Part shown: positions 5,096 to 59,938 of the stretch, one piece after another | Numbering within the stretch: the stretch's first letter is position 1 | Layout of the letters: each line of letters opens with the position of its first letter | DNA from: Anaerolineae bacterium | Lineage (GTDB): Bacteria > Chloroflexota > Anaerolineae > Epilineales > Epilineaceae | Direction: 5' to 3' | Assembly (NCBI GenBank): GCA_034432155.1 | Contig: DAOUCP010000098.1 | Coordinates: 583 to 64,582 of the forward strand | DNA: 64,000 nucleotides | Made by a program: the position numbers and the translations under genes | The notes under the pieces: generated by a model | What the model was told of the DNA's origin: nothing | Databases searched by the model: none | The model's input: the letters and a program-made list of their open reading frames with translations, nothing else

Positions 5096-5198
5096 CAACG
5101 TGCCAGTAACCCACCCTTCGGGCGGGAGCGAGAACGGCGGCCGAGAGGGCGCGTGGCTTAGAGCTCCCGATTCGCCAGCAGGGGACCGAGCATTGCGT

Positions 5199-5600: not shown

Positions 5601-5649
5601 TCCCGTCCGCCTTTTTCGAGGGCTGGTGCGCGCGGAGCAAGGCAGTCAC

Positions 5650-12970: not shown

Positions 12971-12986
12971 ACCGAGGTGTCAGACG

Positions 12987-14015: not shown

Positions 14016-14061
14016 TCCGTACCTGCCCCGTCTCGGGCGGGTTCGCTCCATCCGACAAGAG

Positions 14062-14829: not shown

Positions 14830-14845
14830 CTTGGAGAGGCTCGCG

Positions 14846-15523: not shown

Positions 15524-15600
15524 CCTTTTCCCCCGGCTGCAGGCTGGGGTACGTGGGGATGGTGGGCTGCCACTGTCCCGTCTAGGAGCAGGAGCAAAGG

Positions 15601-42065: not shown

Positions 42066-42537
42066 GGTCTCTACCTCCTCTTTCGTGCCTGGCAGACAGC
42101 CTCCGGAGCATGCGCCGCCACGGGCCAGGGGGAGCCGCAAGTCACCTTTGCGACCACCTTCGTCTCCCACCAATTCGGCTCCCGCTCGCCGATCACGGGC
42201 CGCAGGCACCGTCTGGCCACCACGCCCCTGGCCGGCACTGCATTCGGCGTCACGGCGCACACTTTGGGAGCGTCGCCGAAGGACCGGTGGTCCAGGCCGT
42301 TCGTGGTCTCTCTGCCGGTTGCCAGGATACGGTTCCGCCTGACGGTGCCCAGCAGCACAGCTTCCACGCTCGACCGACCTTCCAAGTTGTCCCGGATCTC
42401 CGTGCCCGAGGCGACGTGGGCCCGATTCGACCTCCGGCTGGTGCGAGTCACGGTGAACATCGGGCTAGCGCCGTGGCTTCCGACCCGAGACCCTCACGTG
42501 CCCCACATGCAAGAGTCCCGTGATCGCCGCAGCCGCA

Positions 42538-43794: not shown

Positions 43795-44562
43795 CTACCA
43801 CCGGTATGGCGCGCAGTCCGGCGCGGCGAAGGTGCCCCGCGCGGCGCACCGCCCTCGCCACGTCCTCGGCATCGACCACCGCCGACACCTCCACTGCCAA
43901 CAGACCTCCGGAGCCTCGGCGGCATCTCGTAGCGTCCCCTTTACCAGGGCATCGATCTGCAGCACATCGGCAAAGTCGGCGGTAGCGAGGTGCGACTCCA
44001 GGACATCTTCGAGAAAGACCGGTGATTCGGTGCGCACCCGTCGCAGGATCTCCCCAAAGTAGGCGCCGGCCTTCTCCCGGTACTCGGCCTCGAGCCACCG
44101 CCCCGACCGCCGGTTGAGGACCTCGAGATTGGCCGCCATCCGTTGCACCTGCCGTTCCGTGCGCACCTGCGCCTCGGCGAGCCGCTGCACCGTTTCCTCG
44201 AGGCGCGTCAGCCGCTCTTCGGTACGCGCCTGCGCCTCGGCGAGCCGCTCCACTGCTGCCTCGAGGCGGGCGACCGCTCCTTCCACCCGCGTCAGCCGCT
44301 CCTCCGCGGCCGCCTGCGCCTCGGCGAGCCGCTCGACCGTTGCCTCGAGGCGTGTCAGGCGCTCTTCGGCACGCGCATGTGCTGCCGCCAGCGCGGCGAG
44401 CTGTTCGTCCGTGCGCCGCCCGATGCTCGCCGTCTCGGCGAGGACCTCCTTGACCTCCCGCAGCAAGTCGGTCGCCATCATGCCGGCTAGTTCGAGTCGC
44501 AGCCTCGGCTCGGCAGCTAGTACCTGCAGCAGGGCTTCCACGTCTTGTGGTGTCAGAGCCAT
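43795..44562 (-). CDS. Coiled-coil tandem-repeat protein (21-aa repeat EERLTRLEATVERLAEAQAAA x ~4), C-terminus possibly frameshifted
   Basis: 63-bp DNA tandem repeats at 44158-44420. Past the globular region the C-terminal tail becomes Arg/Trp-rich and looks out of frame. Confidence 0.55.
   Translation of the reverse strand: MALTPQDVEALLQVLAAEPRLRLELAGMMATDLLREVKEVLAETASIGRRTDEQLAALAAAHARAEERLTRLEATVERLAEAQAAAEERLTRVEGAVARLEAAVERLAEAQARTEERLTRLEETVQRLAEAQVRTERQVQRMAANLEVLNRRSGRWLEAEYREKAGAYFGEILRRVRTESPVFLEDVLESHLATADFADVLQIDALVKGTLRDAAEAPEVCWQWRCRRWSMPRTWRGRCAARGTFAAPDCAPYRW
44158..44420. repeat. 63-bp tandem repeat x ~4 inside the coiled-coil gene
   Basis: The cctgcgcctcggcgagccgctc... 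units are read directly from the sequence. Confidence 0.6.
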
Positions 44563-44884
44563 TCCTCGACCTCACCGCCATGTGCCAGACAGCATGCGTG
44601 CGCCTAGAACATCTGTCCCAATCCTAGCATCCGCAAACGCCGAGGGCAAACGCTGCCCGCTGACGCGGTGGCTCCGTCCGACAGGCGCAGATAACGGACT
44701 CCCGCCCATGCAGCCGAGCGCAATCGCCGGCGGCCATGTCCGTCACGTGACGCCAGACAGCCGTCGTGGTATACCCTCTCCCGCGAGCGGTCATCGGCAC
44801 CGGAGACGGTCCATCGGTCGTCGACGCCGACCCTCGCCTGCCCGTGAGCGGGCATCGGTGGAGTGGCCTCGAAAGGGGACAGCC

Positions 44885-45883
44885 ATGGAACAAGCAACCG
44901 CTTCCAGCAGCGTAGCCGCGTGGCTTACCGCCGGACTGCTGATGACGATCTTGCTCGGCCCGGCCGTGGCGCTGGATTCGCCCATCGGAAGGTCGGCGCC
45001 GGCTGCCTCCGCGATCGTGATCGACCACACCTGCACCGATCTCGCCCGCATACCGACGGACTGGATCGGAAGAGCGAAACGGCTCACCTTGCACTACGCG
45101 CACACATCGCATGGCTCCCAGCTGATCAGTGGGCTAGAGGACCTAGAGCGCATCGACCCCCAATATGACGTCGCGGTGCACACCAGCGCCACCGTCGGCC
45201 TGCCCTCGGCACCGGATGCATTGCGGATCTACGACGGCAATCCCGGCGCCACCTATATTACTCCCGAGCTCTACTGGGCATCGGCCGACGGCATCGCTCG
45301 TACGCGCGCGGTCGCCGACACCGGCCTGTTCGGCTTTTCGATGTGGGCATGGTGTGGCCAGCAGTCCTCCAACTCCGAGGGGCAGGTCCGGCAGTACCTC
45401 GACCAGTTGGACGAGTTCGAGCGGCTTTATCCCGCGATGCGCTTCATCTACATGACTGGCCACACCGACGGCGGCTCGGCCACGCTGACGCGCAACAACC
45501 AGTTGGTCCGGGACTACGTTCGGGCGCACGGCAAGGTCCTGTTCGACTTCGCCGATATCGAGAGCTACGACCCCGCCGGCAACTACCACCCTGAGACCAC
45601 CGACGCCTGCGACTGGTGCGAGGACTGGTGCCGGGTTCATCCCGAGGACTGTCGAAACCTGCCTTCGTCCTGCGCCCACTCGCACCCCTTGAACTGTCGC
45701 CGCAAAGGCTATGCCGTCTGGTGGCTGATGTCGCGCCTCGCTGGCTGGCCCGGGCCATCAGCCACCCCAGGCACTCCGCAGCCCACCGTCCAGCCTCTGC
45801 CAAGCAGGACCGTCGAACCACATCCGCTGACCGACTCGGCGATCTATCTGCCGGCCGTCTGGCACAGCGGCCCATCCAGCTGA
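44885..45883 (+). CDS. Secreted hypothetical protein with a Cys-rich C-terminal region
   Basis: Signal peptide (MEQATASSSVAAWLTAGLLMTILLGPAVA). The long 44114 ORF N-terminus was rejected. The protein ends ...AIYLPAVWHSGPSS. Confidence 0.6.
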   Translation: MEQATASSSVAAWLTAGLLMTILLGPAVALDSPIGRSAPAASAIVIDHTCTDLARIPTDWIGRAKRLTLHYAHTSHGSQLISGLEDLERIDPQYDVAVHTSATVGLPSAPDALRIYDGNPGATYITPELYWASADGIARTRAVADTGLFGFSMWAWCGQQSSNSEGQVRQYLDQLDEFERLYPAMRFIYMTGHTDGGSATLTRNNQLVRDYVRAHGKVLFDFADIESYDPAGNYHPETTDACDWCEDWCRVHPEDCRNLPSSCAHSHPLNCRRKGYAVWWLMSRLAGWPGPSATPGTPQPTVQPLPSRTVEPHPLTDSAIYLPAVWHSGPSS

Positions 45884-46086
45884 TTGCCCGGTCTGCCAGG
45901 GGCAGCGCCACTGAGGCGCACGGCACCCGCCACGCTTTCGGGGCGCCCGGCGAACCGGGTAGAATGGCTCAGACCGCCTTGTACTGTGGCCGGGCTATCC
46001 GAGAAGCGGCGTGTCTGCCAGGACGGCGGTGGGGCAAGCCCTCGCGAGGCTGAGGGATGCCAGGGCGGCGCATAGCATTCCATCCG

Positions 46087-46165
46087 AACGTGGACAACCG
46101 GAGGGAGCCGACGTTGCCGGGATCCCGCGGCTCAGCGGAGGGCCGTCCAGCCACGGAGAAGCGGT
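46087..46165 (+). repeat. ~80-nt element (aacgtggacaaccggagggagcc...ccagccacggaga) with an inverted copy at 57068-57148
   Basis: About 88% identity over the 52-nt core. It lies upstream of ndh here. The other copy sits in opposite orientation ahead of a minus-strand ORF. Confidence 0.45.
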
Positions 46166-46253
46166 GGTCCAGGGAGCAGCTGGGGGCTGGGGCCACCAAT
46201 CCGGCGGGCCAAGCGCTGTCGAACGAGCCGCGGGCGGGCCCAAAGGAGCCAGC

Positions 46254-47510
46254 ATGAGCGGAAGTCAGCGACCGCGAGTGGTGATCGTCGGCGCCGGGTT
46301 TGCCGGCCTGCGTGCAGCTCGCACCCTGATGGCGGCACCGGTCGACGTCCTGGTGCTGGATCGCAACAACTACCACACCTTCCTGCCGTTGCTTTACCAG
46401 GTGGCGGCGGCCGAACTGGAGCCGGAAGGGATTGTCTACCCGGTCCGAGGCATTCTGCGGCGGTGCTCCAACGTCAGCTTCGGCATGGCCGATGTCCGGG
46501 CCATCGATCTGGCGGCCCATGTCCTCGATACCGGCCAGCGATTCGTGGGCTACGACTTCCTGGTCGTAGCGATGGGGAGCACGTCCCACTTCTGCGGCGT
46601 AGCCGGGGCAGGGGAGCACGCCTTCCCCCTAAAGACCCTGGAGGACGGCATTGCGCTACGCAACCACATCCTCTGCTGCTTCGAGCGAGCGGTCGACGAG
46701 CCCGACGCCAGCCGTCGCCGTTCGCTACTGACCTTCGCCGTTGTTGGCGGCGGCGCCACGGGCGTCGAGTTCGCGGGCGCCTTGGCCGAGCTGATTCGTG
46801 GCCCTATCGTGCACGACTACCCGACCCTCAATCTAGATGAGGCACGCATCGTCCTAGTGGAATCCTCCGAGCATCTTCTGGCCGGTCTACCGATGCGGCT
46901 GGGCGACTACGCGGCGGCACGGCTGCGCGGCATGGGTGTCGAAGTCCGCCTCCGCTGCGCCGCCAGCGAGGTCACGCCCACGGCCCTGAGCTTACAGGAT
47001 GGCAGCCTGCTGGCCACCCATACCGTGGTGTGGATGGCCGGCGTGCAAGGCGACCCTCGGGTCAGTGCTTGGGGATTGCCGACCATCCGAAACGGCCGGG
47101 TGGCAGTCCAGCCCACTCTGCAGGTGCCGGATCATCCTGAAGTCTACGTCGTGGGAGATCTCGCCTACGCCGAAGAAGCCGGCGCACCACTGCCGATGAT
47201 TGCGCCAGTAGCCCTCCAGCAGGGAGCCCTGGCAGCCCGAAACATCGCCCGGCAGCTCAGCGGCCAACCTCTCCTACCGTTTCGCTACCGCGACCGGGGT
47301 GCCATGGTGACCATCGGGCGCAATGCCGCTGCTGTGCGCATGGGCGGGAGGGCCTTCACAGGCTTTCCGGCGTGGGCTCTGTGGCTCGGCGTGCACATCT
47401 TCCATCTCATCGGCTTTCGCAACCGACTGTTGGTGTTGACTAACTGGGCTTGGGATTACTTCGTCCACGAGCGGGCCGTCCGCCTGATTCTCCCGTCGAA
47501 GGGCGGCTAG
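46254..47510 (+). CDS. ndh: Type II NADH:quinone oxidoreductase (NDH-2)
   Basis: Two GxGxxG dinucleotide-binding motifs ([17 protein letters not shown]) and NDH-2 family length. Confidence 0.88.
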
Positions 47511-47770
47511 CTGCGGCGAAGGACCGCCTGGGCGCGCTGGCTGGCCGTTCTACGGCCTCGGCGGGAGGCAGCCAGTTGACCTGGCTGATGGGCGGGGGTA
47601 TGATGTTTGCCGCAGGGTTGGTCCGGCGACGGCGCGGCGCACCGCCACCACGGGAGGCCGAGGCACGGCAGGGCGTTGGACACGAGAGCACGGAGCCGGT
47701 GGATCCGCAGCGGTGAGCTAACCTTAGGGCCGAACTATCGGGTCATCCCCAATCGCCGTGCCGCCCAGCC

Positions 47771-49021
47771 ATGGACGCTAGAGCCCGAATCCTGGTGATC
47801 GACGACGACCAGGATATGTGTGCCGCCTGCCAGCGCATTTTGAGCCGGCAGGGGCTCCTTGTCGACACCGCCACCCGGGGCGAGGAGGGGCTGCGCCGCA
47901 TCGAGTCCGACGGCTACGACGTAGTCCTTCTGGACGTCATGATGCCAGACGCCAACGGCATCGATCTCTTGGCGCCGATCCGAGCCCGCGACCCCCACCT
48001 TGTCTGCGTCGTCGTCACCTGCTTGGCGACGACCGATGTCGCGGTACGCGCGATCAAGGAAGGGGCCTACGACTTCATTACCAAGCCGTTCACGCCAGAC
48101 GATCTGCTGCTCGTCGTTCGGCAGGCGCTGGAGCGGCGGCACCTGGCGAAGGAGGCCGAACGGCTGGCGCGGATCGAGGAGGAGGCCAAGCGCCTGGCTG
48201 AGGAGAAGGCCAGGCTGGAGGCTGTGGACCACACCCGCATCGAGTGCATCCGGCTCATCACCCATGAGCTGCGAGCGCCCATTGCCGCCATCCAGAGCTA
48301 CCTGAACCTCATCCTGGAGGGCATCGTGCCGCAAGAGCAGCTCATGACGGTGATTGCCAAGGCCGAGTTACGCGCTCGGCAGCAGCTTGAGCTGATTGCT
48401 GACCTCCTGGAATGGAGCCGCGTCAAAGAGGCGCCGATGCCCAAGGAGGCCGGCTTGTCGCGGCTGGACACGGCGCTCGAGGATGTAGTGGAGCAGTTTG
48501 AGGCCCAGGCGGCGGAGAAGCACTTGCAGCTCGGGGTCGAAGTCTCCGGCGACATCCCACCAGTGAGGGCCGGGCCCGAGGCCCTCAAAAGCGTCTGGAC
48601 GAATCTGGTCGGCAACGCCATCAAGTACACCCCCGATGGCGGCTCGGTGCAGATTCGTCTGGCCTGCCACGATGGCCACGTCGTGGGCCAGGTCAGCGAT
48701 TCGGGCATCGGCATTCCGGAAGAAGCCCGTCCCAGGCTCTTTACCGAGTTCTTCCGCGCCAAGAACGCCAAAGCATTCTGCAAGCAGGGCACGGGGCTCG
48801 GGCTGGCCATCGTCCGGCAGATCATCGAAGGTGCAGGGGGTCGCATCGAGGTCGACTCCGAGGTCGGTCGCGGTACGGTAGTCACCTTCACTCTGCCGTT
48901 GGCCGACGCCGAACCGTTGGCCGAGCGGCCGGCCGATGGCTGTCCCAAGTGTTTTGCCTTAGGGCGTGCGGTGGCTAGGGCGCAACGGCGTGCCGGCCGC
49001 GCCGATCCGGCTCGGAGGTGA
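47771..49021 (+). CDS. Hybrid response regulator receiver / histidine kinase (REC-HisKA-HATPase)
   Basis: REC domain (VIDDD...DVVLLDVMMPD...ITKPF), H-box (ITHELRAPI), and N and G boxes (GNAIKYT, GTGLGLAIV). There is no sensor domain. It overlaps the hdrC2 start. Confidence 0.85.
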   Translation: MDARARILVIDDDQDMCAACQRILSRQGLLVDTATRGEEGLRRIESDGYDVVLLDVMMPDANGIDLLAPIRARDPHLVCVVVTCLATTDVAVRAIKEGAYDFITKPFTPDDLLLVVRQALERRHLAKEAERLARIEEEAKRLAEEKARLEAVDHTRIECIRLITHELRAPIAAIQSYLNLILEGIVPQEQLMTVIAKAELRARQQLELIADLLEWSRVKEAPMPKEAGLSRLDTALEDVVEQFEAQAAEKHLQLGVEVSGDIPPVRAGPEALKSVWTNLVGNAIKYTPDGGSVQIRLACHDGHVVGQVSDSGIGIPEEARPRLFTEFFRAKNAKAFCKQGTGLGLAIVRQIIEGAGGRIEVDSEVGRGTVVTFTLPLADAEPLAERPADGCPKCFALGRAVARAQRRAGRADPARR

Positions 49022-49024
49022 GTC

Positions 49025-49612
49025 TTGCTGGTATTCCAGGCTGAGGAACGGGTCGCTGGCAACCTTCTGCTGAGGGAGGTTTCGTCGCTCAGCGGCGTTC
49101 GGGTCCAGGACTGCTACCAATGCGGCAAGTGCACGGCTGGCTGTCCGGTGGCCACCTACATGGACTTGACACCTCGGCAGGTCATGCGCGCCGTGCAGCT
49201 GGGCCGTGCCGAGTTGGTGCTCACCTCGTCGGCTATCTGGTTGTGTGCCAGTTGCCAGACGTGCTCTGCCCGGTGCCCCATGGAGATCGACGTGGCCCAT
49301 GTCATGGACACTCTACGCCACCTCGCTCGGCAGCGCGGCGTGCCGCCCGCCGAGCGAGGCGTGGTGCTGACCCACCGCTTGTTTCTGCAGTCGGTCCAGT
49401 ACCTGGGGAGGGTGCACGAGCTCGGGCTGGTGGCCGGTCTGAATCTGCTGACCGGTCGGCCGCTGGCCAACGTGAGGAGCCTTGGTGTGCCTCTGTTCCT
49501 CCGGGGCAAGCTGCATCTCTTGCCCCGACGAGCCGGCGGCGCAGCTATGCGCCGTCTCTTCGCCAGCGCTCGGGCCGCTGAATCGGCTGCTCGAACGCAG
49601 CCTACGGCTTAG
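49025..49612 (+). CDS. hdrC: Heterodisulfide reductase subunit C-like (second copy)
   Basis: CYQCGKCTAGCP and CASCQTCSARCP motifs. TTG start. Confidence 0.72.
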   Translation: MLVFQAEERVAGNLLLREVSSLSGVRVQDCYQCGKCTAGCPVATYMDLTPRQVMRAVQLGRAELVLTSSAIWLCASCQTCSARCPMEIDVAHVMDTLRHLARQRGVPPAERGVVLTHRLFLQSVQYLGRVHELGLVAGLNLLTGRPLANVRSLGVPLFLRGKLHLLPRRAGGAAMRRLFASARAAESAARTQPTA

Positions 49613-49651
49613 CCGAGTGGCCCCGTCTTGCGGCCTAGGGAGCTCTGGTCC

Positions 49652-50569
49652 ATGCCCAACCTAAGCTACTATCCCGGCTGCTCGCTGCACGGCACGGCTC
49701 AGGAGTATGACCGGTCGCTTCGGCGTGTCGCCGGGCGCCTGGGCGTCGAGCTCACGGAAATCGCGGGCTGGACGTGCTGCGGCGCGACGGCCGCGCACAG
49801 CACCGACGAGCTGCTGGCCATCGCTCTGCCGGCCCGTAACCTGGCGTTGGCAGCGGCTTCGGACAGCGCTCGGCCCGTGCTGGCACCGTGTGCCATGTGC
49901 TTCAACCGCCTGCGGGTGGCCCAACAGGCGCTGTGCGACGAGGAAACGCGGCAAGAGGTCGGCCGGATGCTGGACGAACCCTTGCGCGAGCACCTGGAGG
50001 CTGTCGGCCGCCTAGAGGTGCCATCCGTGCTCGAGGTGTTCGCTGAGCCGGAGATGGCCGAGCGCATCGAGGCGGCAGTGGTTCGGCCGCTGCGTGGCCT
50101 GCGGCTGGTGTGCTACTACGGCTGCCTGCTCGTTCGTCCGCGCGAGATTGTGAGGCCGGACAGCGTCGAGAACCCCCAGCGGATGGACGAGCTGGTGCGC
50201 CGCCTGGGTGCCGAGGCCATCGACTGGCCGTTCAAGGGGGAGTGCTGTGGGGGCAGTCTGGCGCTGGCGCGTTCGGACATCGTGGTTGGCCTGGTGCGAC
50301 GCCTGCTGCAAGTGGCGAAAGCTAGCGGCGCCGACGCCGTCGTGACCGCCTGCCCGATGTGCCATTCGAACCTGGACACTCGCCAGGGGCAAGTGCGGGC
50401 GGCCTTCGGCGAGGCGCTGAACATGCCCATTCTCTACATCACTGAGCTGATGGGGTTGGCTTTCGGTCTGTCACCCGAGGAGCTAGGGCTGGACAGGCAC
50501 CTCACACGGGCAACCGACGTTCTTGCGGGCTTGCCAGCCGTTGCCGGGGAGGCCAACTCGATCGTCTGA
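49652..50569 (+). CDS. hdrB: Heterodisulfide reductase subunit B-like (second copy)
   Basis: Begins MPNLSYYPGCSL and carries CCG-domain motifs (WTCCGAT, CAMC, ECCGGS, CPMC). Confidence 0.85.
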   Translation: MPNLSYYPGCSLHGTAQEYDRSLRRVAGRLGVELTEIAGWTCCGATAAHSTDELLAIALPARNLALAAASDSARPVLAPCAMCFNRLRVAQQALCDEETRQEVGRMLDEPLREHLEAVGRLEVPSVLEVFAEPEMAERIEAAVVRPLRGLRLVCYYGCLLVRPREIVRPDSVENPQRMDELVRRLGAEAIDWPFKGECCGGSLALARSDIVVGLVRRLLQVAKASGADAVVTACPMCHSNLDTRQGQVRAAFGEALNMPILYITELMGLAFGLSPEELGLDRHLTRATDVLAGLPAVAGEANSIV

Positions 50570-50589
50570 CCGTGAGGCACGGAGCATCC

Positions 50590-52587
50590 ATGGCGCGCAT
50601 CGGGGTCTTTGTCTGTCACTGCGGATCGAACATCGCCGGCACCGTCGACGTGAAGCGGGTTGCCGAAGCCTTAGGTTATCTCCCGGAGGTCGTGTACGCC
50701 ACTGACTACATGTTCATGTGCTCCGAGCCGGGCCAGAAGCTTGTGGAGGACGCCGTCCGCGACCATGGGCTGGATCGCGTGGTGGTGGCGGCCTGCTCAC
50801 CGACGATGCACTTCCGGACGTTCTCGGCGGCCGTCGGGCGGGCGGGTCTGAATGCGTACATGTTGGAGCTGGCCAACATTCGTGAGCAGTGCTCCTGGGT
50901 GCACACGGACAAGGCGGTGGGTACCGAGAAGGCCGTCGACATCGTCGAGATGGCGGTGGCCAAGAGCCGCTGGTTCGAGCCGCTGTTTCCGCGCGAGATC
51001 GGCGTCACCCGACGGGCGCTGGTGATCGGCGGCGGCATCGCCGGGATCCAAGCGGCGCTGGACATCGCCGAGGGCGGCGTGGAGGTCGTCCTCGTGGAGC
51101 GCAGTCCTTCGATCGGTGGCCGCATGGCCCAGCTGGACAAGACCTTTCCGACGCTCGATTGCTCCGGCTGCATCCTCACGCCGCGCATGACCGAGGCAGC
51201 CCAGCACCCGCGGATCAGCATCCACACCTGGTCCGAAGTCCAGGCCGTGCGAGGCTTCGTCGGCAACTTCGAGGTCGACGTTCTCCACAAGCCACGGTAC
51301 GTGGATGCCGCGCGCTGTACCGGCTGCGGGGAATGCCTGACCCGCTGTCCGTGGAAGGACTTCCCAGCCGAGTTTGACGAAGGCATGGGCAGGCGAGCCG
51401 CCATCTACCGTCCCTTCCCACAGGCTGTGCCGAACGTACCGGTCATCGACGAGCAGCGGTGCGTCGCCTTGCGCTCGTTGCGCGAGGAGCCAGACCGCGC
51501 CAGGCCGAAGTGCGGCGCCTGCCAGAAGTTCTGTCCGCGTGAGGCCATCGATTTCCGTCAGCAGCCCAGCGTGGCCACCGAGAAGGTCGGCGCCATCGTC
51601 CTGGCCAACGGCTATAGCCTCTTCGACCCGACCGTCTACGAGGAGTACGGATACGGCCGCTACCCCGATGTCATCACCGCAGTGCAAATGGAGCGGCTGA
51701 TGAACGCCGCTGGCCCCACGGGCGGCGAGATCCGACGGCCGTCGGACGGCAAGCATCCTCGCAATGTCGTCTTCCTAGCCTGTGTCGGCTCGCGCGACGA
51801 CCGCGTCGGGCGGCCGTACTGCTCAAAGATCTGCTGCATGTATATTGCCAAGCACGCCATCATGCTGAAGGAGCACGACCCCAATATCCAGACGTACGTC
51901 TTCTACATGGATGTGCGTGCCGGCGGAAAGGGCTACGAGGAGTTCATCCGACGCGCCCAGGAAGAGTATGGCGCCTGCTACGTGCGGGGACGGGTCTCGA
52001 AGATCTACCCCGAAGGCGACCATCTGGTGGTGATGGGCGAGGACACCCTCATGGGCATGCCGGTGCAGGTCGAGGCGGACCTGGTGGTGCTCGCCACCGG
52101 CGTCCAGCCGCAGCCCGATGCCGACCGCATGGCTCGCCTGCTGGGGATTTCCTATGACATGTACGGCTTCATCAACGAATCGCACCCCAAGCTCAATCCG
52201 GTGGAGAGCAACACGGCGGGCATCTTCCTGGCTGGTGCGACCGTCGGGCCGAAGGACATCCCGGACAGTGTAGCGCAGGCCAGCGCCGCTGCCGCCAAGG
52301 TGCTGGGTCTGCTCAGTCGGTCCACCCTGCTCGGGGAAGCCACCGTGGCAGCGGTCAACCAGGCCAATTGTTCGGGCTGCTTCACCTGTGAGGCGGTCTG
52401 CCCGTATTCGGCGATCGAGCGGGTGGAGCGGCGGAATGGCCGCCTGGCGGCCCAGGTGAACGAAGGGCTGTGCAAGGGCTGTGGTCTGTGCGCCAGCGCC
52501 TGCCCGGGGCGGGCGATTACCCTCCGCGGCTTCAGCGATCAGGCGCTTCTGGCGCAGATGGCCGCTCTGCTGCTGGCCGAAGGGTGA
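50590..52587 (+). CDS. hdrA: Heterodisulfide reductase subunit A-like (second copy)
   Basis: Begins MARIGVFVCHCGSNIAG. Has the FAD motif GGGIAG and ferredoxin motifs. About 55% identical to the 9397-11352 copy by eye. Confidence 0.9.
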   Translation: MARIGVFVCHCGSNIAGTVDVKRVAEALGYLPEVVYATDYMFMCSEPGQKLVEDAVRDHGLDRVVVAACSPTMHFRTFSAAVGRAGLNAYMLELANIREQCSWVHTDKAVGTEKAVDIVEMAVAKSRWFEPLFPREIGVTRRALVIGGGIAGIQAALDIAEGGVEVVLVERSPSIGGRMAQLDKTFPTLDCSGCILTPRMTEAAQHPRISIHTWSEVQAVRGFVGNFEVDVLHKPRYVDAARCTGCGECLTRCPWKDFPAEFDEGMGRRAAIYRPFPQAVPNVPVIDEQRCVALRSLREEPDRARPKCGACQKFCPREAIDFRQQPSVATEKVGAIVLANGYSLFDPTVYEEYGYGRYPDVITAVQMERLMNAAGPTGGEIRRPSDGKHPRNVVFLACVGSRDDRVGRPYCSKICCMYIAKHAIMLKEHDPNIQTYVFYMDVRAGGKGYEEFIRRAQEEYGACYVRGRVSKIYPEGDHLVVMGEDTLMGMPVQVEADLVVLATGVQPQPDADRMARLLGISYDMYGFINESHPKLNPVESNTAGIFLAGATVGPKDIPDSVAQASAAAAKVLGLLSRSTLLGEATVAAVNQANCSGCFTCEAVCPYSAIERVERRNGRLAAQVNEGLCKGCGLCASACPGRAITLRGFSDQALLAQMAALLLAEG

Positions 52588-52711
52588 GCCATCATGGTCG
52601 ACGGCCAAGGCTGGCATCGGCTCGTCATGGGCGATGAAACCCTCCTGCGGCGGTGGGCGTTGCGGGCTCTGTGCTGCCGGATGGTCGACATAGTGTCGGA
52701 CGAGGAACGAA

Positions 52712-53164
52712 ATGCCTGAGGACTTCGAGCCGCGCATCGTCGGCTTTCTGTGCAATTGGTGCAGCTACGCCGGTGCCAACCTGGCCGGGACAAGCCGGAT
52801 CCCTTACGCCGCCAACGTGCGGATTATCCGTGTGCCATGCAGTGGTAGGGTCGATCCGCTCTTCGTAGTCAAGGCCTTTCAGGAGGGCGCCGACGGCGTG
52901 CTGGTCCTGGGCTGCCATCCGGGCGACTGCCACTACCGGGACGGCAATTACTATGCCCGCCGGCGCTACCATGTCATGCATCGCTTCTTGGACTTCTTGG
53001 GCATCGATGCTCGGCGGCTGCGGGTTGACTGGGTATCCGCGGCGGAGGGCCAACGTTTCGCCGACGTGGTCAATCGCTTCACCGATCAGGTCCGGGCGCT
53101 GGGGCCGATCGCAGTCCGGCCATCGAGCGAGGTGCCGACATCGACCGACGTGCCGACGCGGTGA
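52712..53164 (+). CDS. mvhD: MvhD/FlxD-like subunit (second copy)
   Basis: Begins MPEDFEPRIVGFLCNWCS...GCHPGDCHY. Confidence 0.85.
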   Translation: MPEDFEPRIVGFLCNWCSYAGANLAGTSRIPYAANVRIIRVPCSGRVDPLFVVKAFQEGADGVLVLGCHPGDCHYRDGNYYARRRYHVMHRFLDFLGIDARRLRVDWVSAAEGQRFADVVNRFTDQVRALGPIAVRPSSEVPTSTDVPTR

Positions 53165-53228
53165 CCCGGACGAGCTGGCCACGACGTAAGCCCTTGGGCT
53201 CTGGCGGCGGCATGGGGGAGGCGCCACA

Positions 53229-54110
53229 ATGATCGACGAGCTGCGCACCAGGGCGCGCCAAATCCTGGAAGACAACCTCGTAGAAGTGGTGATCGGCTAC
53301 GAGTCGGGTCCCCGCGGGGCGGTCCGACCGGCATTCATCACCTCGCCGGACGAGGCGGACCGCCTGGTGTGGAACGAAGCATGCACCCACAACCTGGTGA
53401 GGTACCTGCGTGACCAGACGGCGCCGGTCACGGCAGGCGGCTCGCGGCGCCGCATCGGGATTGTCCTCAAGCCTTGTGACGCCCGGTCCCTGAACGTGCT
53501 TTTGGGCGAGAATCAGATTCGGCGGGAGGACCTGTACCTGATCGGCGTGGTCTGCCGCGGGGTGCGCGAGAACGCCGGCTTTGCCCATCGCGAGTTGGGC
53601 GATCTGCAATCTCGCTGCCGGGCTTGCGATGAGCGCGCACCGTTGATTTACGACGTGCTGGTCGGCGAGGAAGCGACCGGCGACCGGGCGACGGTGTCGC
53701 CGCTGTGGCAGGAACTGGAGCGCCTGGAAGCCATGACGGCCGTGGAGCGGGAGGCCTACTGGGACCGTGAGTTTGCGCGCTGCCTGCGGTGTTATGCCTG
53801 CCGCCAGGCATGCCCGGCATGCTATTGCGTGGAGTGCATGGCCGAGCAGCTGGAGCCGCAGTGGGTGGGCATTGCCATCCGGACTGCCGAGAACCGCTTC
53901 TTCCACACCATGCGCGCGTATCACCTGGCCGGGCGATGCGTGGGCTGCGATGAGTGCGCCCGCGTGTGCCCGGTCGGGATCCGACTGGATTTGCTCAATG
54001 CCTGGTTGCGCCGCGAGATGGAGCGGTCGTTCGGCGCGCGGGCCGGGAGCGAGGACACTGCCGTTTCGCCGCTGGCCAGCTTTGTAGCCAGCGAGAACCT
54101 GGAGCTGTGA
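53229..54110 (+). CDS. HydB/AsrA-like FeS subunit (FlxC-like, second copy)
   Basis: CLRCYACRQACPACYC and CVGCDECARVCP motifs. Collinear with the 11768-12970 gene. Confidence 0.75.
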   Translation: MIDELRTRARQILEDNLVEVVIGYESGPRGAVRPAFITSPDEADRLVWNEACTHNLVRYLRDQTAPVTAGGSRRRIGIVLKPCDARSLNVLLGENQIRREDLYLIGVVCRGVRENAGFAHRELGDLQSRCRACDERAPLIYDVLVGEEATGDRATVSPLWQELERLEAMTAVEREAYWDREFARCLRCYACRQACPACYCVECMAEQLEPQWVGIAIRTAENRFFHTMRAYHLAGRCVGCDECARVCPVGIRLDLLNAWLRREMERSFGARAGSEDTAVSPLASFVASENLEL

Positions 54111-54164
54111 CGGGAGAGGCGCCCGTTGCAGTTCGGGCGAGCCAGCGCGATAAAGGATGTGGTC

Positions 54165-55412
54165 ATGTACGTTATCAGCCATGAGCTGCTGTGCCAGTGG
54201 TTGACGGGCTTGCTGGCGGATTGGGAGCTGATCGCGCCGACGAAGGACGAGGCCGGCATGGCGCGCTACCAGCCGGTGGCTGGGGTAAATGACATCGATT
54301 TTGCCTTCGAGCGGACGGTGCTGTCACCCAAGCAGTTTTTCCTGCCGGCCACCGAGAAGTTGCTCACCATCGAGCGCACGTGCCAGCCGGCGAGTAAGTC
54401 GGTGGTCGAAGCGGCAACCCTTCCGGCAGCCGTGACGGCGGTCGCGGCCGCCGCAGCCGTCGCGTCGGCTGCTGATTGCCCCGTTCCGACAGCTGGCTCC
54501 TCGGCGTCTGCCGAGCCTGCTGCCAAGCCTGGCGGCGAGACCGCTGGCGAGGCCGGAGACCAGACCGCCGCAAAGACCGCGGGTCCGTTGCCGCCAGCGG
54601 TGAGCGTGCGGACCGGTATCGAGGTGACGCTCCGCGAGCCCGAATGGCAGCGCCAGCAGGTCCTCTTCGGCATCCGGCCGTGTGATGCCCGGGCGTTGCT
54701 CTCCCTCGACGCGCTCCTGCTGGCAGAGCCGGTCGACAGCTACTATGCGCGGCGCCGCGAGGCCACCGTGCTGATTGGGCTGGCCTGCGACCAGATGGCA
54801 CCGAGCTGCTTCTGCACCAGCCTGGGCTCTTCGCCCGATGACCCGACCGGGTTGGATATCCTGCTGTCCCGACAGGCCGACGGCTACGTCATGACCGTTT
54901 TGACCGACAAGGGTCGGGGCTTGACCGGCGGCCTGGAGCTGGAGCCCTACGAAGGACCAAGCCCGCAGCGGGAGTGGGCGGCACCGGAGTTCGCGGTCGC
55001 CCCCCATGCCGTGTGGACGGCACGATTCGAGGATTCCTTCTGGAACCGGCTAGCCGACCGTTGCTTGAGCTGCAGGCTATGCGCCTACGTTTGCCCGACC
55101 TGCCGCTGTTTCGACGTCCGCGACTACACCGTGGCACGCGGGCCGGGACGGGAGAAGATCGAGCGGCTACGATGCTGGGACTCGTGCCTCTCCGAAGGTT
55201 ACCGCTGCGCAGCAGGCGGTCACAACCCGCGACCGACCAAGGCCCAGCGTCTGCGCAATCGCTTCTATTGCAAGTTCGTGTACTATCCGGCGGATTTCGG
55301 TCCGCTGGCCTGTGTGGGCTGCGGCCGTTGCATCGACCTCTGTCCGACGAACATCGACATCACCGAGGTGCTTGCCGCCGTCCAGGCGGCGAGCGAGGCC
55401 CCGGAAAGCTAA
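54165..55412 (+). CDS. HydB/AsrA-like FeS subunit (FlxB-like, second copy) with an Ala-rich insertion
   Basis: CLSCRLCAYVCPTCRC and CVGCGRCIDLCP motifs. The ATG sits behind an AAGGA RBS. A ~70-aa A/P/T low-complexity linker is present. Confidence 0.75.
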   Translation: MYVISHELLCQWLTGLLADWELIAPTKDEAGMARYQPVAGVNDIDFAFERTVLSPKQFFLPATEKLLTIERTCQPASKSVVEAATLPAAVTAVAAAAAVASAADCPVPTAGSSASAEPAAKPGGETAGEAGDQTAAKTAGPLPPAVSVRTGIEVTLREPEWQRQQVLFGIRPCDARALLSLDALLLAEPVDSYYARRREATVLIGLACDQMAPSCFCTSLGSSPDDPTGLDILLSRQADGYVMTVLTDKGRGLTGGLELEPYEGPSPQREWAAPEFAVAPHAVWTARFEDSFWNRLADRCLSCRLCAYVCPTCRCFDVRDYTVARGPGREKIERLRCWDSCLSEGYRCAAGGHNPRPTKAQRLRNRFYCKFVYYPADFGPLACVGCGRCIDLCPTNIDITEVLAAVQAASEAPES

Positions 55413-55574
55413 GCGGCGGTTGTAGATGGCCAGGGGCTGGCGCATGGGCTGGGGTGGCGGCGAGCTTGCCGACGCGCAGGTTCCCGGTGGTAGGGGGCTG
55501 GCGCGTCCGGTGCGCTCGGGCCTGGTGGGTGCTCTCTCGCCGGCCTGGCGTTCGGTGTGGATGAGGAAGCGAGT

Positions 55575-56405
55575 ATGAAGAACCCGTACCTGCCTCATCT
55601 CGGCCGACTGGTGGCCATCGAACCGCTCGGGACGGGCATCAAGCTGTTCCGGGTGGCGTTCGAGGACCCTTCGGCGGCCAGCGGATTTCACTATCGCCCC
55701 GGTCAGTTTGCCTTCCTGAGTGGTTTCGGCGTTGGCGAGGCACCCTTCGGCATCACGTCGGTGGATGGCCTGGATCCGACAGTCGACTTTGCGGTCGCTG
55801 CCGTGGGGACGGTCACCCGGGCCCTCCACGGAATGAGCGTCGGCGACGTCGTCGGCGTCCGCGGCCCGATGGGCAACTGGTTCCCTCTCGAGGACCTCAA
55901 GGGCCGGAACGTGCTGTTCCTTGGCGGCGGCATCGGCGGTGCTCCCCTGCGGCCGGTGATCACCTCCATCCTGCACGACCGCTCGCAATATGGCGATATG
56001 ACGATTCTTTGGGCAGCGCGGCATCCGGGTTTGCTGGTCTTCCGGCAGGAGTATGATCGCTGGCGCCAGGCGCCGCGTACCGAACTGCATCTGACGGTCG
56101 ATGAGGGCGACGCGAGCTGGACCGGTCATGTCGGACTGATCACCCAGCTGCTGCAAAGGGTCGGTCCATCGCCCGACAACACGGTGGCGATTCTGTGCGG
56201 ACCGCCGATCATGATTCACTTCGCCATCCTCGAGCTGCTGAAGCTGGGCTTTGTTTCCGACCAGATTCTCACGACCCTGGAGGCCAAGATGAAGTGCGGG
56301 GTCGGCAAGTGTGGCCGGTGCAACATGGGCGAGAAGTACGTGTGTCTTCACGGCCCAGTTTTCAGCCACGCCGAGATCAAGGACTTCCTGGAGAGCTTCG
56401 TCTAG
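55575..56405 (+). CDS. FAD/NAD(P)H-binding oxidoreductase with a C-terminal [2Fe-2S] (FlxA-like, second copy)
   Basis: GVRGPMGNWFPL, LGGGIGGAP and CGVGKCGRC motifs. GAGGAAG RBS. Confidence 0.8.
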   Translation: MKNPYLPHLGRLVAIEPLGTGIKLFRVAFEDPSAASGFHYRPGQFAFLSGFGVGEAPFGITSVDGLDPTVDFAVAAVGTVTRALHGMSVGDVVGVRGPMGNWFPLEDLKGRNVLFLGGGIGGAPLRPVITSILHDRSQYGDMTILWAARHPGLLVFRQEYDRWRQAPRTELHLTVDEGDASWTGHVGLITQLLQRVGPSPDNTVAILCGPPIMIHFAILELLKLGFVSDQILTTLEAKMKCGVGKCGRCNMGEKYVCLHGPVFSHAEIKDFLESFV

Positions 56406-56452
56406 GCCGGGGGAGTCCGAGAACCGCTGACCGAAGCCTGCGGGCACCGACG

Positions 56453-58130
56453 TCACTGTCCGTGCGGCGGGACCATCCGCGAGTGCCGAGCGACAGGAAA
56501 CTCTGGCTCTTGTGGTGACGGGCGTGTTGCCGGCGGTCGAGCCCGAGGTCGGCGCAACAAACAATAGAACCGGTGCCTTGGCTGTGGCGGTGACTTCGTT
56601 GAGAGCGACGGCGGGACATCGCGCACGTATGCACCCGCGGGACCGTTGACCGCTTCAGGTGCCGGCCAGTGCAACTCCAGGCCGGCGCCGGGCCTATCGG
56701 TGGTGACCCACGCCGAACGACTGCCGCTGTCTGCCCGTCGGAGGTCCTTGGACCAGGAGGAGGACGTGTAGAGCGGGCCGCGGGCTGACGATGCTGTTAG
56801 CGAGGCAATGCGAGCCAGATTGGCCTGGGTGGCATCGATCCTGTGGCCGCGGTGGCACCCGGTACACACGAAGTGGCCGTTGGGCCGCAGACAGCCGTAT
56901 CCGAAGTAGTGGATGAGCGAGCTGGTTGCCGAAAAGGTGCTTGTTGGCAACAGGGCCGTCGGCGGGGCCACGCCACTGTGCTTCACCAGAATGTGCGTGA
57001 CCGCCCGGTCCGTCGGCACTGTGGCAGTGAACGCCCCCGAGCATCGACCGGCAAACTGGCCAAGAAGCGAGGGATCTCCGTAGCTGGACACACGGCCGCT
57101 CAGCCGTGGGATTCCGGGAGCGTGGGCTCCCTCCGGTTGTCCACGTTAGGAGAGATGGAAAGGTACCTGGGCTCGGTGTTGAACACCCGCGAGTCTTCAT
57201 AGACATCCACGCGGGCGCCGGCACCGACCCTGGCCGAAGGCACGTCGACGACGTGTGGCGGCAAGTCGGCATACAGCTTGACATTGATCAGACGGGCAGT
57301 GAGGCCGAAGTCGACTGGGGTGAGAGCCAGCACGCCCACGAGATCCACCCAAAACGCGTGGCCGATGGTGCCGCTCCGCAGGACGGTGGGATCGATCGCC
57401 CCGGATCGCAATGTTGGCAAGCGCCCGTAGCGGCCGGTCTTGCGGGTCCAGGACGTACAGGTTGAGGCCGCGCCGGCCGCACGACGCCGACACGGTCGCG
57501 TAGCGCGTCGAGACGAACATGACGCGGCTGTCGGGCAGATAGGTCGGGCCGAAGTCGCCGAAGCGACCGAAGACGCTCTCGTTGCGGCCGGGTTCCTTGG
57601 GGTCGGCCGGCCAGGTGAAGCCGCGGTCTGGCCCCGCCAGCTGACGCATACCGGAGCCGTCGAGGCCAATCGCGCGCAGGTACCACTGCGCCTTGTTCTT
57701 CTCCGCCCTGGAGAAAACGACCCGTGTGCCGTCGAGGGATGCATCCCGTTGCTGTGCGTCTTAGAGGCCAGTGCCGGCAATGACGTTCACAAGTCGCCCG
57801 TCGGGATACCAGGCGATGAGCCGGCCGCCCAGCGTGGACTCACGTCCCGTGATATCGAGCGGTGCCCCTACGGAGTGACCATCGAGCGTCGGCAGCCGGT
57901 TTCGCGAAACAAAGAGAAGCGGTACATCGGGCAGCGGCACACCGTCGTCGGGCTTTGGCACGACGTACTCGGCGACGGTTGCTGGCGCGGAATCCCGCCC
58001 TCGGGCTTGCGCCAGAGAGCTCGCAATGGCGCGGCGCGCCAGGGCGCGTAAGGCCGGCCCGGTGGACGTTGGTCGCGGGGCGGTGTAGCATCCGGCAGCC
58101 TGATCCTGCTGCCTGCGCCATGGCGGCAAG
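56453..58130 (-). pseudogene. Degraded TolB/PD40-type beta-propeller region followed by a CxxCH-containing segment
   Basis: PD40-like repeats (GGRLIAWYPDGRLVNV, FTWPADPKEPGRNESVFGRFGDFGPTYLPDSRVMFVSTRY) are spread over three frames. The 56453-57091 ORF has CTGCH, but its N-terminus is a translation of the repeat element. Confidence 0.35.
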
Positions 58131-58162
58131 CAGGCAGCCGGCGGAACCCTTCGATCCAGCCC

Positions 58163-59938
58163 ATGACGATCGCCATCGCATCCCTACTGGTCATCGTTCT
58201 CGCGGTCGTGATCCTCTTGTCGCGCGAGTGGATTCCGGCGGACGTGGTGGCGCTGGGTCTCATGGTGGTTCTGGTTGGTTCGGGCCTCCTGCCTGCCGAG
58301 AGAGCGTTCGCCGGGTTCGGCAGCGAGCCAGTGATGGCGTTGCTCGGGCTGCTGATACTGACCGCGGCCCTCCTGCGCACCGGTGCCGTGGAAGCGATCG
58401 GTCAATCGATTCTCGACCGGCTCGGCAAGCACCGCGAGCTGATGGTGCCCACCGTCATGGTGGCCGCGGCGAGCTTGAGCTCGTTCATCAGCAACACGGC
58501 CACCACCGCCTTCCTACTGCCCCTCGTGATCACGCTTTCGGGCCGCTTGCGTCTGCCGTCCTCGCGTTTGCTTATGCCGCTCGCCTTTGCCTCGATCCTG
58601 GCCAGCTCCGTGAGCCTGGTGGCCAGCTCGACGAACATCGTCGTGAGTGGGCTGATCCAGCAACAAGGCCTAGAGCCGTTGGCGATGTTCGAGCTAACGC
58701 CCGTGGGCGTCCCCATCGTCCTGGTTGGCCTGATCTACATGGCGCTCATCGGGCAGCGCTTCATCCCCGATCGGCTACCACGCCCTTCGCTGACCGAGCA
58801 GTTTGGCCTGCAGCCGTACTTGGCCGAACTCAAGGTTCACCCGGACTCGCCGCTGGTCGGTCAGACCCTCGCCCAGGCGGAACTGGGCCGGCGACTCGAT
58901 CTGACGGTTCTAAGCATCGTCCGCCACAAGGAGGAGCATCTGGTCCCCCGCTCCGACACCACGCTCGCGGCAGGAGACCGGTTGCTGGTGGAGGGTCGAC
59001 GCGAGGATATCCTTCGGGTCCGCAACGTGGTCGGTATCGACCTGGAAGCGGACAGTCACCTCTCGGACCGCGACCTGGCGAGCGGGGGGCTGGAGTTGGC
59101 CGAAGTCATTCTATTGCCCAGATCACCGCTTCTCTGGAATACCCTGGCCAGCCTGCGCTTGCGGGAGCGGTACGGACTGCAGGTTCTGGCGATCCAGCGA
59201 CAGGGGGGTACGATCCGCCGCCGTATCGGCGAAGTGCCCATGCACTTGGGCGACGTGTTACTGGTGCAGGCGACCCCGGCAAGCATTGCCGTGTTGCAGG
59301 ACCAAGGCGCCTTTCGGGTGCTTCACGTGCTGGAGGCGATGCCATACCGCCCACGCCATGCGCGGCTTGTGGTGGCCGTGTTCGCCGCCGCGCTGACTGC
59401 CGCGGCCCTCGAATGGGTGCCGCTGCCGGTGGCCGTGCTCGCCGGTTCAGTGGTCGCCTTCCTGACCGGTGCGATCACGCCGCAGGAAGCGTACCGGGAG
59501 GTCGAGTGGAAGCTCCTGATCCTCGTGGCCGGCATGCTGAGTTTGGGGGCGGCAATGGAGTCGACGGGTGCGGCGCGGTTCCTGGCCGGCCACCTCATCG
59601 ACTGGCTCGGCAACGCTTCCCCGCTCTGCCTGTTGACGGCGTTCTTCGCGCTCACGATGCTCCTGACTCAGCCGATGTCAAACCAGGCAGCGGCAACGGT
59701 CGTCCTCCCCATCGCCCTGCAGGCGGCGTGGCAGCTCGGTCTCAATCCGCGCACCTTTGCCGCCATGATCGCCGTTGCGGCCAGCTGCTCTTTCATCACG
59801 CCCCTCGAGCCTTCTTGCCTGCTGGTGTTCGGAGCGGGCCACTACCGCTTTCTTGACTTCTTCCGGGTCGGCCTGCCGCTGACACTTCTGATCTACCTGG
59901 TGGCCATCCTCCTTGTGCCCCTGGTATGGCCGCTCTAA
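58163..59938 (+). CDS. DASS/SLC13-family anion transporter with two central TrkA-C regulatory domains
   Basis: 591-aa protein with transmembrane blocks flanking two TrkA-C-like soluble repeats (VLSIVRHKEEHLVPRSDTTLAAGDRLLV and VLAIQRQGGTIRRRIGEVPMHLGDVLLV). Confidence 0.85.
   Translation: MTIAIASLLVIVLAVVILLSREWIPADVVALGLMVVLVGSGLLPAERAFAGFGSEPVMALLGLLILTAALLRTGAVEAIGQSILDRLGKHRELMVPTVMVAAASLSSFISNTATTAFLLPLVITLSGRLRLPSSRLLMPLAFASILASSVSLVASSTNIVVSGLIQQQGLEPLAMFELTPVGVPIVLVGLIYMALIGQRFIPDRLPRPSLTEQFGLQPYLAELKVHPDSPLVGQTLAQAELGRRLDLTVLSIVRHKEEHLVPRSDTTLAAGDRLLVEGRREDILRVRNVVGIDLEADSHLSDRDLASGGLELAEVILLPRSPLLWNTLASLRLRERYGLQVLAIQRQGGTIRRRIGEVPMHLGDVLLVQATPASIAVLQDQGAFRVLHVLEAMPYRPRHARLVVAVFAAALTAAALEWVPLPVAVLAGSVVAFLTGAITPQEAYREVEWKLLILVAGMLSLGAAMESTGAARFLAGHLIDWLGNASPLCLLTAFFALTMLLTQPMSNQAAATVVLPIALQAAWQLGLNPRTFAAMIAVAASCSFITPLEPSCLLVFGAGHYRFLDFFRVGLPLTLLIYLVAILLVPLVWPL

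Follow-up and report, generated by a model that had tools for sequence, protein, structure and literature searches.

A Flx–Hdr-type gene cluster headed by a Rec-controlled histidine kinase in an Anaerolineae genome, and a signalling cassette shared by the kinase's relatives

The FlxABCD–HdrABC complex (Hdr/Flox) of Desulfovibrio vulgaris and other anaerobes is among the closest described relatives of the locus reported here, an eight-gene unit at positions 47771–56405 (+ strand) of a 64-kb stretch of Anaerolineae DNA (contig DAOUCP010000098.1); we refer to the whole stretch as the window and all of its coordinates are counted along it. Its proposed role is NAD(P)H oxidation with transfer of the electrons to HdrABC (PMC4287179; Ramos et al. 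2015 as cited in PMC6315080 and PMC7382037). For bacteria that do not reduce sulfate, the enzyme has been termed an 'uncharacterized syntroph-associated redox complex' (PMC7382037). Regulation of an adh-hdr/flx operon by a nearby-encoded two-component system has been described in D. vulgaris (DVU2394; PMC3333781). For the signalling half of our locus, the prototype is LvrB of Leptospira, a Rec-controlled histidine kinase (Rec-HK); once an upstream kinase has phosphorylated its receiver, its linker helices assemble into a coiled coil and its catalytic domains come free (PMC13269768). CheS3 of Rhodospirillum centenum and ExsG of Rhizobium NT-26 also carry an N-terminal receiver, which takes its phosphate from a different kinase and modulates the core of its own, and phosphorylated CheS3 phosphorylates the stand-alone CheY3 (PMC3868531, PMC3899027).

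The unit comprises eight open reading frames (ORFs) on one strand, from the ATG of a REC-HisKA-HATPase ORF to the stop codon of flxA, in the order REC-HisKA-HATPase, hdrC, hdrB, hdrA, mvhD/flxD, flxC, flxB and flxA. On balance we think it probable, though with considerable reserve, that the unit encodes a Flx–Hdr-type complex together with an LvrB-type Rec-HK, the latter being the remnant of a Cache kinase cassette and likely co-expressed with hdrC. The initial annotation of this DNA had reported a second, simpler hdrCBA-mvhD-flxCBA cluster at 47771–56405, and both the ORF list and Pfam showed the cluster to be real and its coordinates to be exact. We call it cluster 2, and its paralogue at 5088–17268 cluster 1. 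The seven enzyme genes hdrCBA-flxDCBA are contiguous on a single strand, with gaps of 144 nt or less and no credible terminator within the unit, and the G+C content is ~66% across the entire window. Since the 1.75 kb downstream of flxA (56405–58160) hold no intact ORF and the next gene encodes a CitMHS/TrkA_C transporter (Pfam), we place the end of the unit at flxA. Codon-position G+C and translations such as WYPDGRLV and LYVLDPQDRPLRAL suggest that a disrupted minus-strand PD40/TolB-like gene occupies this downstream stretch. ORFs at 56453–57780 (− strand) were considered as thiol carriers and rejected, as they have no Pfam match and their frames resemble the same disrupted PD40/TolB-like pseudogene.

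The enzyme genes lack none of the cofactor motifs that a Flx–Hdr complex should have, and are in this respect of a known kind. The product of hdrC (49025–49612) is an HdrC-like 4Fe-4S dicluster protein in Pfam, with a match to TIGR03290 (1e-21) that falls under the cut-off of that model, and a motif scan found two CX2CX2CX3C motifs at residues 30–40 and 74–84 (CYQCGKCTAGC and CASCQTCSARC). Two Pfam CCG domains (9e-24) and a match to PDB entry 8rvu_b (7e-42) identify hdrB (49628–50569), in which both CX31-39CCX35-36CX2C (CCG) motifs are complete, at residues 18–91 and 166–245. The HdrA-like (Pfam) product of hdrA (50572–52587) matches methanogen HdrA (5odc_A) at 1e-217 over residues 8–663, and contains a GGGIAG FAD site at 153–158, CVGSRDDRVGRPYCSKICC (the CxGxRDx8Cx3CC motif) at 404–422, three CX2CX2CX3C motifs and an N-terminal CHC. 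The true start codons may lie slightly further in, possibly at ATG 49652 for hdrB and at ATG 50590 for hdrA. The next gene, mvhD/flxD (52712–53164), gives a full-length FlpD/MvhD match in Pfam (2e-54) and a match to VhuD (3e-39), and its product has five Cys residues. The FeS protein encoded by flxC (53229–54110) has weak Pfam Fer4 matches and two CX2CX2CX3C motifs. FlxB (54126–55412) is HydB/AsrA-like (Fer4_22, 9e-30; PDB 9nez_B, 6e-43), and FlxA (55557–56405) is a HydG/PyrK-like FAD/NAD(P)-binding protein (NAD_binding_1, 4e-14; DHODB_Fe-S_bind, 7e-08; PDB 9nez_C, 7e-52) with a GGGIGGAP motif and a C-terminal Cys cluster; 9nez_B and 9nez_C are the beta and gamma subunits of Pyrococcus sulfhydrogenase I. 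FlxB of cluster 2 further contains a low-complexity insertion of ~75 aa rich in Ala, Pro, Gly and Ser (residues ~90–165, nt ~54390–54620), which is specific to the window, the orthologues at the loci L001 and L093–L096 lacking it as judged from split high-scoring segment pairs. No hydrogenase domain (MvhA/MvhG NiFe subunits) was found in 47771–58160, so the locus does not qualify as MvhAGD–HdrABC. We also considered the sHdr sulfur-oxidising system (hdrC1B1A-hyp-hdrC2B2 with lbpA/dsrE/tusA) and rejected it, given one hdrC, one hdrB, flxDCBA following them, and no TusA motif.

The gene that heads the unit (47771–49021) encodes a Rec-controlled histidine kinase of the LvrB type, a known class, whose sole input is its own receiver. 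Pfam gives only Response_reg (6e-29), HisKA (6.5e-08) and HATPase_c (1e-29) and no other domain, in agreement with the initial description of a sensor-less hybrid protein. The protein consists of REC (residues 1–117), a helix (109–182) with His165, a second DHp helix (188–220), the CA domain (232–377) and a tail (381–416). All receiver catalytic residues (D11, D12, D55, T83 and K105) are present, as is an H-box, THELRAP, that holds His165, and in an alignment of 24 relatives these five residues, H165, E166 and the N, G1, F and G2 boxes are invariant. In an AlphaFold2 model with a predicted local distance difference test score (pLDDT) of 82, helix alpha5 of the receiver runs as one 74-residue helix (109–182) into the DHp domain. 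The best full-length Foldseek match of the model is LvrB (8vc9, E 1.5e-23, 394 columns, ~20% identity), and the remaining top matches span the kinase core only. Homologues of the kinase number more than 5900, the top ones being 50–68% identical over ~90% of the length and, where named, coming from Chloroflexi or Anaerolineales.

The alignment of 24 relatives also revealed two invariant residues of the family, Cys79 (nt 48005–48007) at the start of receiver strand beta4 and an Ala at His+4 (A169, nt 48275–48277). In HisKA kinases the His+4 residue is Thr or Asn and is needed for phosphatase, but not kinase, activity (PMC3510030). Because A169 is invariant where phosphatase activity requires Thr or Asn, the family may be kinase-only.

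At the junction of kinase and enzyme genes, the kinase stop codon (TGA, 49019–49021) is followed after a 3-nt spacer by the hdrC start codon (TTG, 49025) in the same frame. A 4-nt overlap of the two genes had been claimed initially and is wrong, since genes that share a frame cannot overlap; the underlying point still holds, as there is no space for a terminator or an intergenic promoter between them. The TTG is the sole start codon ahead of the first HdrC cluster motif, and a GTG stands at the aligned position in the orthologue at L001. Read from the sequence, a Shine-Dalgarno GGAGG for hdrC lies at 49014–49018, within the 3′ end of the kinase ORF and 6 nt before the TTG. A terminator ahead of hdrC, which the initial annotation had named as a finding that would speak against its reading, was looked for and none was found between kinase and hdrC in the window, nor in the same scan of L001, L008 and L038. 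A putative sigma-70-like promoter (TTGACC-17-TATGAT, a 10/12 consensus match at 47576–47604, + strand) sits in the 260-nt gap between the upstream ndh gene and the kinase. It is the sole + strand match in 45800–58200, a region in which both strands together give 4 such matches against a mean of 1.1 in shuffles. Taken together, this arrangement suggests that in the window kinase and hdrC probably share a transcript and are coupled in translation, the kinase hence being made whenever the complex is. A search for Rex sites (TTGTGAANNNNTTCACAA, with up to 3 mismatches) returned one match, at 27171, which is distant from the cluster and within chance expectation, and no Rfam family reached its gathering score anywhere in the window.

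To place the kinase in context, the surroundings of its closest homologues were inspected, together with 80 loci from reference genomes, annotated by tblastn; labels L001 to L096 denote the loci of relatives that were compared with the window. A cassette recurs in Chloroflexota that is made up of a stand-alone REC protein, often an ACT protein, a Cache_3-Cache_2/HAMP histidine kinase and, as its last member, the Rec-HK. It is usually preceded by NuoE/NuoF-like and formate dehydrogenase genes or by a Hox-type NiFe hydrogenase, examples being L089 (1–12040), L087 (3090–10138) and L005 (1–11224), as well as L007, L008, L011 and L042. The Cache/HAMP kinase is encoded directly upstream of the Rec-HK orthologue in 27 of the 42 relatives with sufficient upstream DNA, and at least one of the probed redox genes lies within 10 kb in 25 of 45 loci. 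In the six cassettes that were annotated (L005, L087/88, L089, L090, L092), the other signalling proteins are the stand-alone REC and the ACT protein (L005 has no ACT), and no DNA-binding regulator was found in them. Because the cassette of relatives pairs a Cache kinase with the Rec-HK, the upstream phosphodonor of the window's kinase is most likely a Cache/HAMP kinase encoded elsewhere in the genome. Identification of the cognate kinase of the REC domain had been called for in the initial annotation, and the Cache/HAMP kinase of this conserved cassette now provides a candidate class. Some 35 deltaproteobacterial loci with kinase matches at ~30% identity were set aside as different proteins, their similarity being confined to the kinase core or to an NtrC-type receiver. 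The distant relatives at L050–L086 (~30% identity, other architecture), which are loci of Desulfobacterota, in many metagenome-assembled genomes (MAGs) lie within a few kb of mvhD/hdrA, and may represent a separate association of two-component systems with Hdr.

In L001/L002 (kinase 68% identical), L091 (64%) and L089 (57%, with the full cassette upstream) hdrC comes directly after the Rec-HK gene, and HdrC of these kinase-adjacent loci is 64–68% identical to that of the window (64% in L089). L008 and L038 show the same adjacency, with a NiFe hydrogenase in place of Flx after hdrCBA-mvhD. On the enzyme side, HdrA of cluster 2 (HdrA2) belongs to a group of orthologues that are 79–85% identical, those with names being Ardenticatenia or Anaerolineae, after which there is a gap to 62% or less; HdrC is 63–68% identical to its orthologues in L001, L089, L091 and L093–L095. 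The closest relative is L001, with a kinase 68% and an HdrA 85% identical and the same hdrCBA-flxDCBA layout. L093–L095, with two HdrA orthologues at 81–82%, encode a Hox hydrogenase, NuoE, NuoF, FdhA, hdrCBA-flxDCBA and an Nfn-like pair, and in L093 (141–18216) and L095 (913–16183) these form islands of soluble redox modules of 16–18 kb.

Three layouts of one operon can thus be distinguished. In layout A (L093–L095) formate dehydrogenase/NuoEF genes lead into hdr-flx; in layout B (L089) they are followed by the cassette, the Rec-HK and hdrC; and in layout C (the window, L001/L002 and L091) the Rec-HK leads directly into hdr-flx. Layout C is most simply explained as a layout B whose upstream part has split off. 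The window would then be a reduced layout, in which of the whole cassette only the Rec-HK stayed attached to hdr-flx.

Several observations weigh against a functional bond between kinase and complex. The hdr-flx clusters of L093–L095 contain no signalling gene at all, and neither does that of L096 (HdrA 62%); with close orthologues of hdr-flx lacking it, the kinase is an optional partner that operons of this type can do without. Its link to the Cache kinase/REC cassette is far more constant among relatives than its link to hdr. A Cache kinase, a stand-alone REC protein and ACT proteins were searched for in the 64-kb window and none was found, and the window holds no other REC domain and no response regulator, while the kinase itself has no DNA-binding output. 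In relatives the gap between kinase and hdrC measures 76–450 nt, with a terminator-like hairpin in L089 and a weak one in L091, so co-transcription is not general among them. Finally, the last ~36 codons of the kinase, which form the tail noted above, are not conserved in the alignment, are disordered in the AlphaFold2 model and correspond to intergenic DNA in L001; the 3′ tail may be read-through of what is intergenic DNA there.

The alternative that survives best takes these points together: the kinase, functionally unconnected to Hdr–Flx, would be a remnant of synteny that stayed beside hdrC on rearrangement of the island, and the phosphorelay to which it belongs would control something else, for instance expression of formate dehydrogenase or hydrogenase, or a global response. 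The constant link to the cassette, the close hdr-flx orthologues that lack the kinase and the hairpin in L089 are all in its favour, and in other relatives the gene after the kinase encodes pyruvate formate-lyase, a solute-binding protein or a transposase. Against it, the cases of kinase–hdrC adjacency occupy three separate clades in a neighbour-joining tree of 48 kinases and involve two Hdr partner modules, Flx and the Mvh-type hydrogenase. In addition, the two genes stand 3 nt apart in the window with the hdrC ribosome-binding site inside the kinase ORF, and the kinase gene is undamaged in the window and in L001 alike, retaining every catalytic residue. We therefore regard a leftover kinase as possible, though we would not expect it. 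The initial suggestion that a phosphorelay may control the second copy fares accordingly: a relay is plausible, with a Cache/HAMP kinase directly upstream in the majority of relatives as counted above, while the idea of control specific to this copy is not supported, as the clusters whose HdrA is 81–82% identical do without the kinase.

Under the explanation we favour, in which complex and Rec-HK belong together, NADH electrons would enter at FlxA, which has FAD, an NAD(P)H site and an Fe-S cluster, and FlxB, FlxC and FlxD (MvhD) would pass them to the FAD of HdrA. HdrA would then split electrons between ferredoxin and HdrBC or, in reverse, merge them, and the two non-cubane CCG sites of HdrBC would reduce a disulfide. 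This catalytic scheme is borrowed from what was proposed for Desulfovibrio FlxABCD–HdrABC and solved for methanogen HdrABC; what the present locus itself shows is the domain and cofactor content. By analogy with LvrB, a Cache/HAMP kinase encoded elsewhere would phosphorylate Asp55 and turn the Rec-HK on, presumably acting through the long helix that leads from the receiver to the DHp domain bearing His165. The Rec-HK may in turn feed back on hdr-flx expression.

A further and more tentative proposal is that the cassette is an undescribed signalling system of Anaerolineae/Ardenticatenia for soluble NAD(H)/ferredoxin/H2/formate modules, ending in a kinase-only Rec-HK and having no DNA-binding output, with the window holding a stripped-down, operon-fused version. 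We put this forward as an idea that may well prove wrong. If true, the modules served would be NAD-linked formate dehydrogenase, Hox- and Mvh-type hydrogenases, Hdr–Flx and pyruvate formate-lyase, and the output could be the stand-alone receiver acting on enzymes or an unlinked anti-sigma-type partner as in Lvr. Our literature search found no paper describing the cassette, its redox neighbourhood or the three layouts, and none linking Chloroflexota with Flx–Hdr or Anaerolinea with a kinase adjoining Hdr. The new element is comparative and consists of the cassette with its redox neighbourhood and of one operon occurring in three layouts; Flx–Hdr operons and Rec-HKs are already known kinds.

The window contains a second set of the same enzyme genes, cluster 1 (5088–17268, + strand), in the order hdrC-hdrB-korDABG-hdrA-mvhD-flxC-flxB-flxA-frdB-frdA. 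Gene-by-gene paralogy between the clusters had been noted at the outset, and it is borne out: all seven genes are collinear and in the same order at 38–55% identity, with BLASTP giving 54% for HdrA, 48% for HdrC, 38% for HdrB, 41% for FlxC, 39% for FlxB and 41% for FlxA, and tblastn 55% for MvhD. With E-values that span 1e-25 to 0, this is far beyond chance. The kor and frd genes are indeed missing from cluster 2, as had been stated, korDABG between hdrB and hdrA and frdBA after flxA being present in cluster 1 alone. Cluster 1 had been placed at 5199–14829; the cluster exists, but the range was too short, leaving out the frdB/frdA-like genes that follow flxA at 14729–17268. Its mvhD (~11358–11771, FlpD 5e-52) is hidden by an over-long ORF (11294–12970) whose C-terminal part is flxC, and FlxC of cluster 1 seems to carry a low-complexity N-terminal extension. 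Genes for fumarase, malate:quinone oxidoreductase (Mqo) and succinyl-CoA synthetase (SucC) lie upstream of cluster 1 on the opposite strand. A flx-hdr layout interspersed with kor/tfr genes has been reported in tubeworm symbionts and Thioflavicoccus and proposed to feed electrons to the reductive tricarboxylic acid cycle (PMC6315080). Cluster 1 has the same layout in a Chloroflexota genome, whereas those cases are Gammaproteobacteria, and cluster 2 differs from them in having neither kor nor frd.

From their gene content and divergence, it is plausible that the two copies are specialised. The contrary reading, that both clusters are redundant duplicates of identical function, has the shared set of seven genes in the same order to recommend it, but the identities are merely 38–55%. 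HdrA2 is 85% identical to its orthologue at L001 compared with 54% to HdrA of cluster 1, and the copies must therefore have diverged long before these species did. The insertion of korDABG and the addition of frdBA in cluster 1 alone, a layout described as a distinct variant (PMC6315080), also go against redundancy, and we consider it improbable.

We give equally little credence to the idea that a DsrC/TusA-like thiol is the acceptor for which cluster 2 became specialised, or that the cluster cooperates with the adjacent NDH-2 in redox balancing, both of which the initial annotation had raised. DsrC has reportedly been proposed as the acceptor of the Desulfovibrio Flx–Hdr complex. A six-frame scan of the window, however, found neither a TusA CPxP motif nor a DsrC C-terminal motif, and no Dsr genes were seen in any neighbouring locus. 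The ndh gene, on the same strand immediately upstream and outside the unit, encodes a true type II NADH:quinone oxidoreductase (NDH-2; 46011–47510, + strand; PDB 9mqy, 2e-77), so the gene call was correct; the functional link is not upheld, as the adjacency is not conserved (ndh is not upstream in L001, L089, L091 or L093–L096) and the gap with its promoter-like site separates ndh from the kinase. In L001, glycosyltransferase and aminotransferase genes precede the kinase in place of ndh.

Least probable is that FlxA and FlxB are in fact subunits of an AsrA/AsrB-type sulfite reductase, or the beta/gamma subunits of a sulfhydrogenase, and the enzyme one of sulfur or H2 metabolism and not Flx–Hdr. 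NCBIfam and PDB do return ShyB/HydB, AsrA, HydG and AsrB, but all NCBIfam matches to CoB-CoM reductase, AsrAB and sulfhydrogenase models stay short of the curated cut-offs, those to AsrA (150 bits against 323) and AsrB (175 against 289) by a wide margin, so that the proteins are relatives and not members of these families. Flx proteins are known to resemble AsrA/AsrB and sulfhydrogenase beta/gamma subunits in any case. In addition, 47771–58160 encodes neither AsrC or a siroheme subunit nor a hydrogenase subunit, large or small, as AsrABC or a sulfhydrogenase would require.

A few features of the neighbourhood are recorded for completeness. Upstream of ndh, a 589-aa ORF at 44114–45883 (+ strand) has no Pfam match and an atypical codon-position G+C; it overlaps minus-strand ORFs where the GC skew is strongly negative, and the gene content there is ambiguous. 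At 38178–42464 (− strand) a 1428-aa protein is encoded that has a C-terminal Peptidase_C25 (gingipain-like) domain together with DUF11 and SdrD_B repeats. Among the relatives' loci, the hdr-flx cluster of L096 (Chloroflexi MAG) has a catalase gene between mvhD and flxC (5877–7370) and adjoins cytochrome c oxidase genes and dnaA.

Although Flx–Hdr complexes occur widely, their biochemistry is poorly defined. To the known cases the window contributes a Chloroflexota genome in which two copies have diverged, the first being tied to enzymes of 2-oxoglutarate and fumarate and the second plain and kinase-fused. The three natural layouts (no signalling genes, full cassette, kinase only) offer a ready comparison for the regulation of electron-bifurcating modules in uncultured Anaerolineae. 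Established knowledge of Hdr and of two-component signalling is left unchanged by these findings.

When compared with the described systems, cluster 2 shares all seven subunit types and their cofactor motifs with D. vulgaris FlxABCD–HdrABC, and its genes likewise form one uninterrupted same-strand run. It differs in its Chloroflexota (Anaerolineae/Ardenticatenia-like) host, in the order hdrC-B-A-flxD-C-B-A and in the Rec-HK that heads the unit, and there are no adjoining alcohol dehydrogenase genes, no DsrC in the 64-kb window, and a ~75-aa insertion in FlxB. Its HdrA (1e-217), HdrB (7e-42), HdrC and MvhD are clear homologues of the subunits of methanogen MvhAGD–HdrABC (5odc, 8rvu) with all cluster cysteines, but MvhA and MvhG are absent and electron input would be by FlxABC. 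The methanogen substrate CoM-S-S-CoB is not expected in a bacterium.

With regard to signalling, DVU2394 is a DNA-binding response regulator, whereas neither the window nor any annotated cassette of the relatives encodes a DNA-binding regulator. The CheS3 relay resembles the cassette with its stand-alone REC protein and two kinases; CheS3, however, is encoded in a Che-like cluster and ExsG has an HWE core and is hexameric, and neither is tied to redox-enzyme operons, unlike the kinase of the window. LvrB is the nearest counterpart, at a sequence identity of ~20%. Its upstream kinase is LvrA, where relatives of our kinase have a Cache/HAMP kinase instead, and no LvrC-like REC/anti-sigma partner was found. 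Both proteins nevertheless share the REC-alphaS-DHp-CA architecture with no other sensor, D56 and H161 of LvrB correspond to Asp55 and His165 here, and in LvrB as in our AlphaFold2 model a single continuous helix connects the receiver to the DHp domain.

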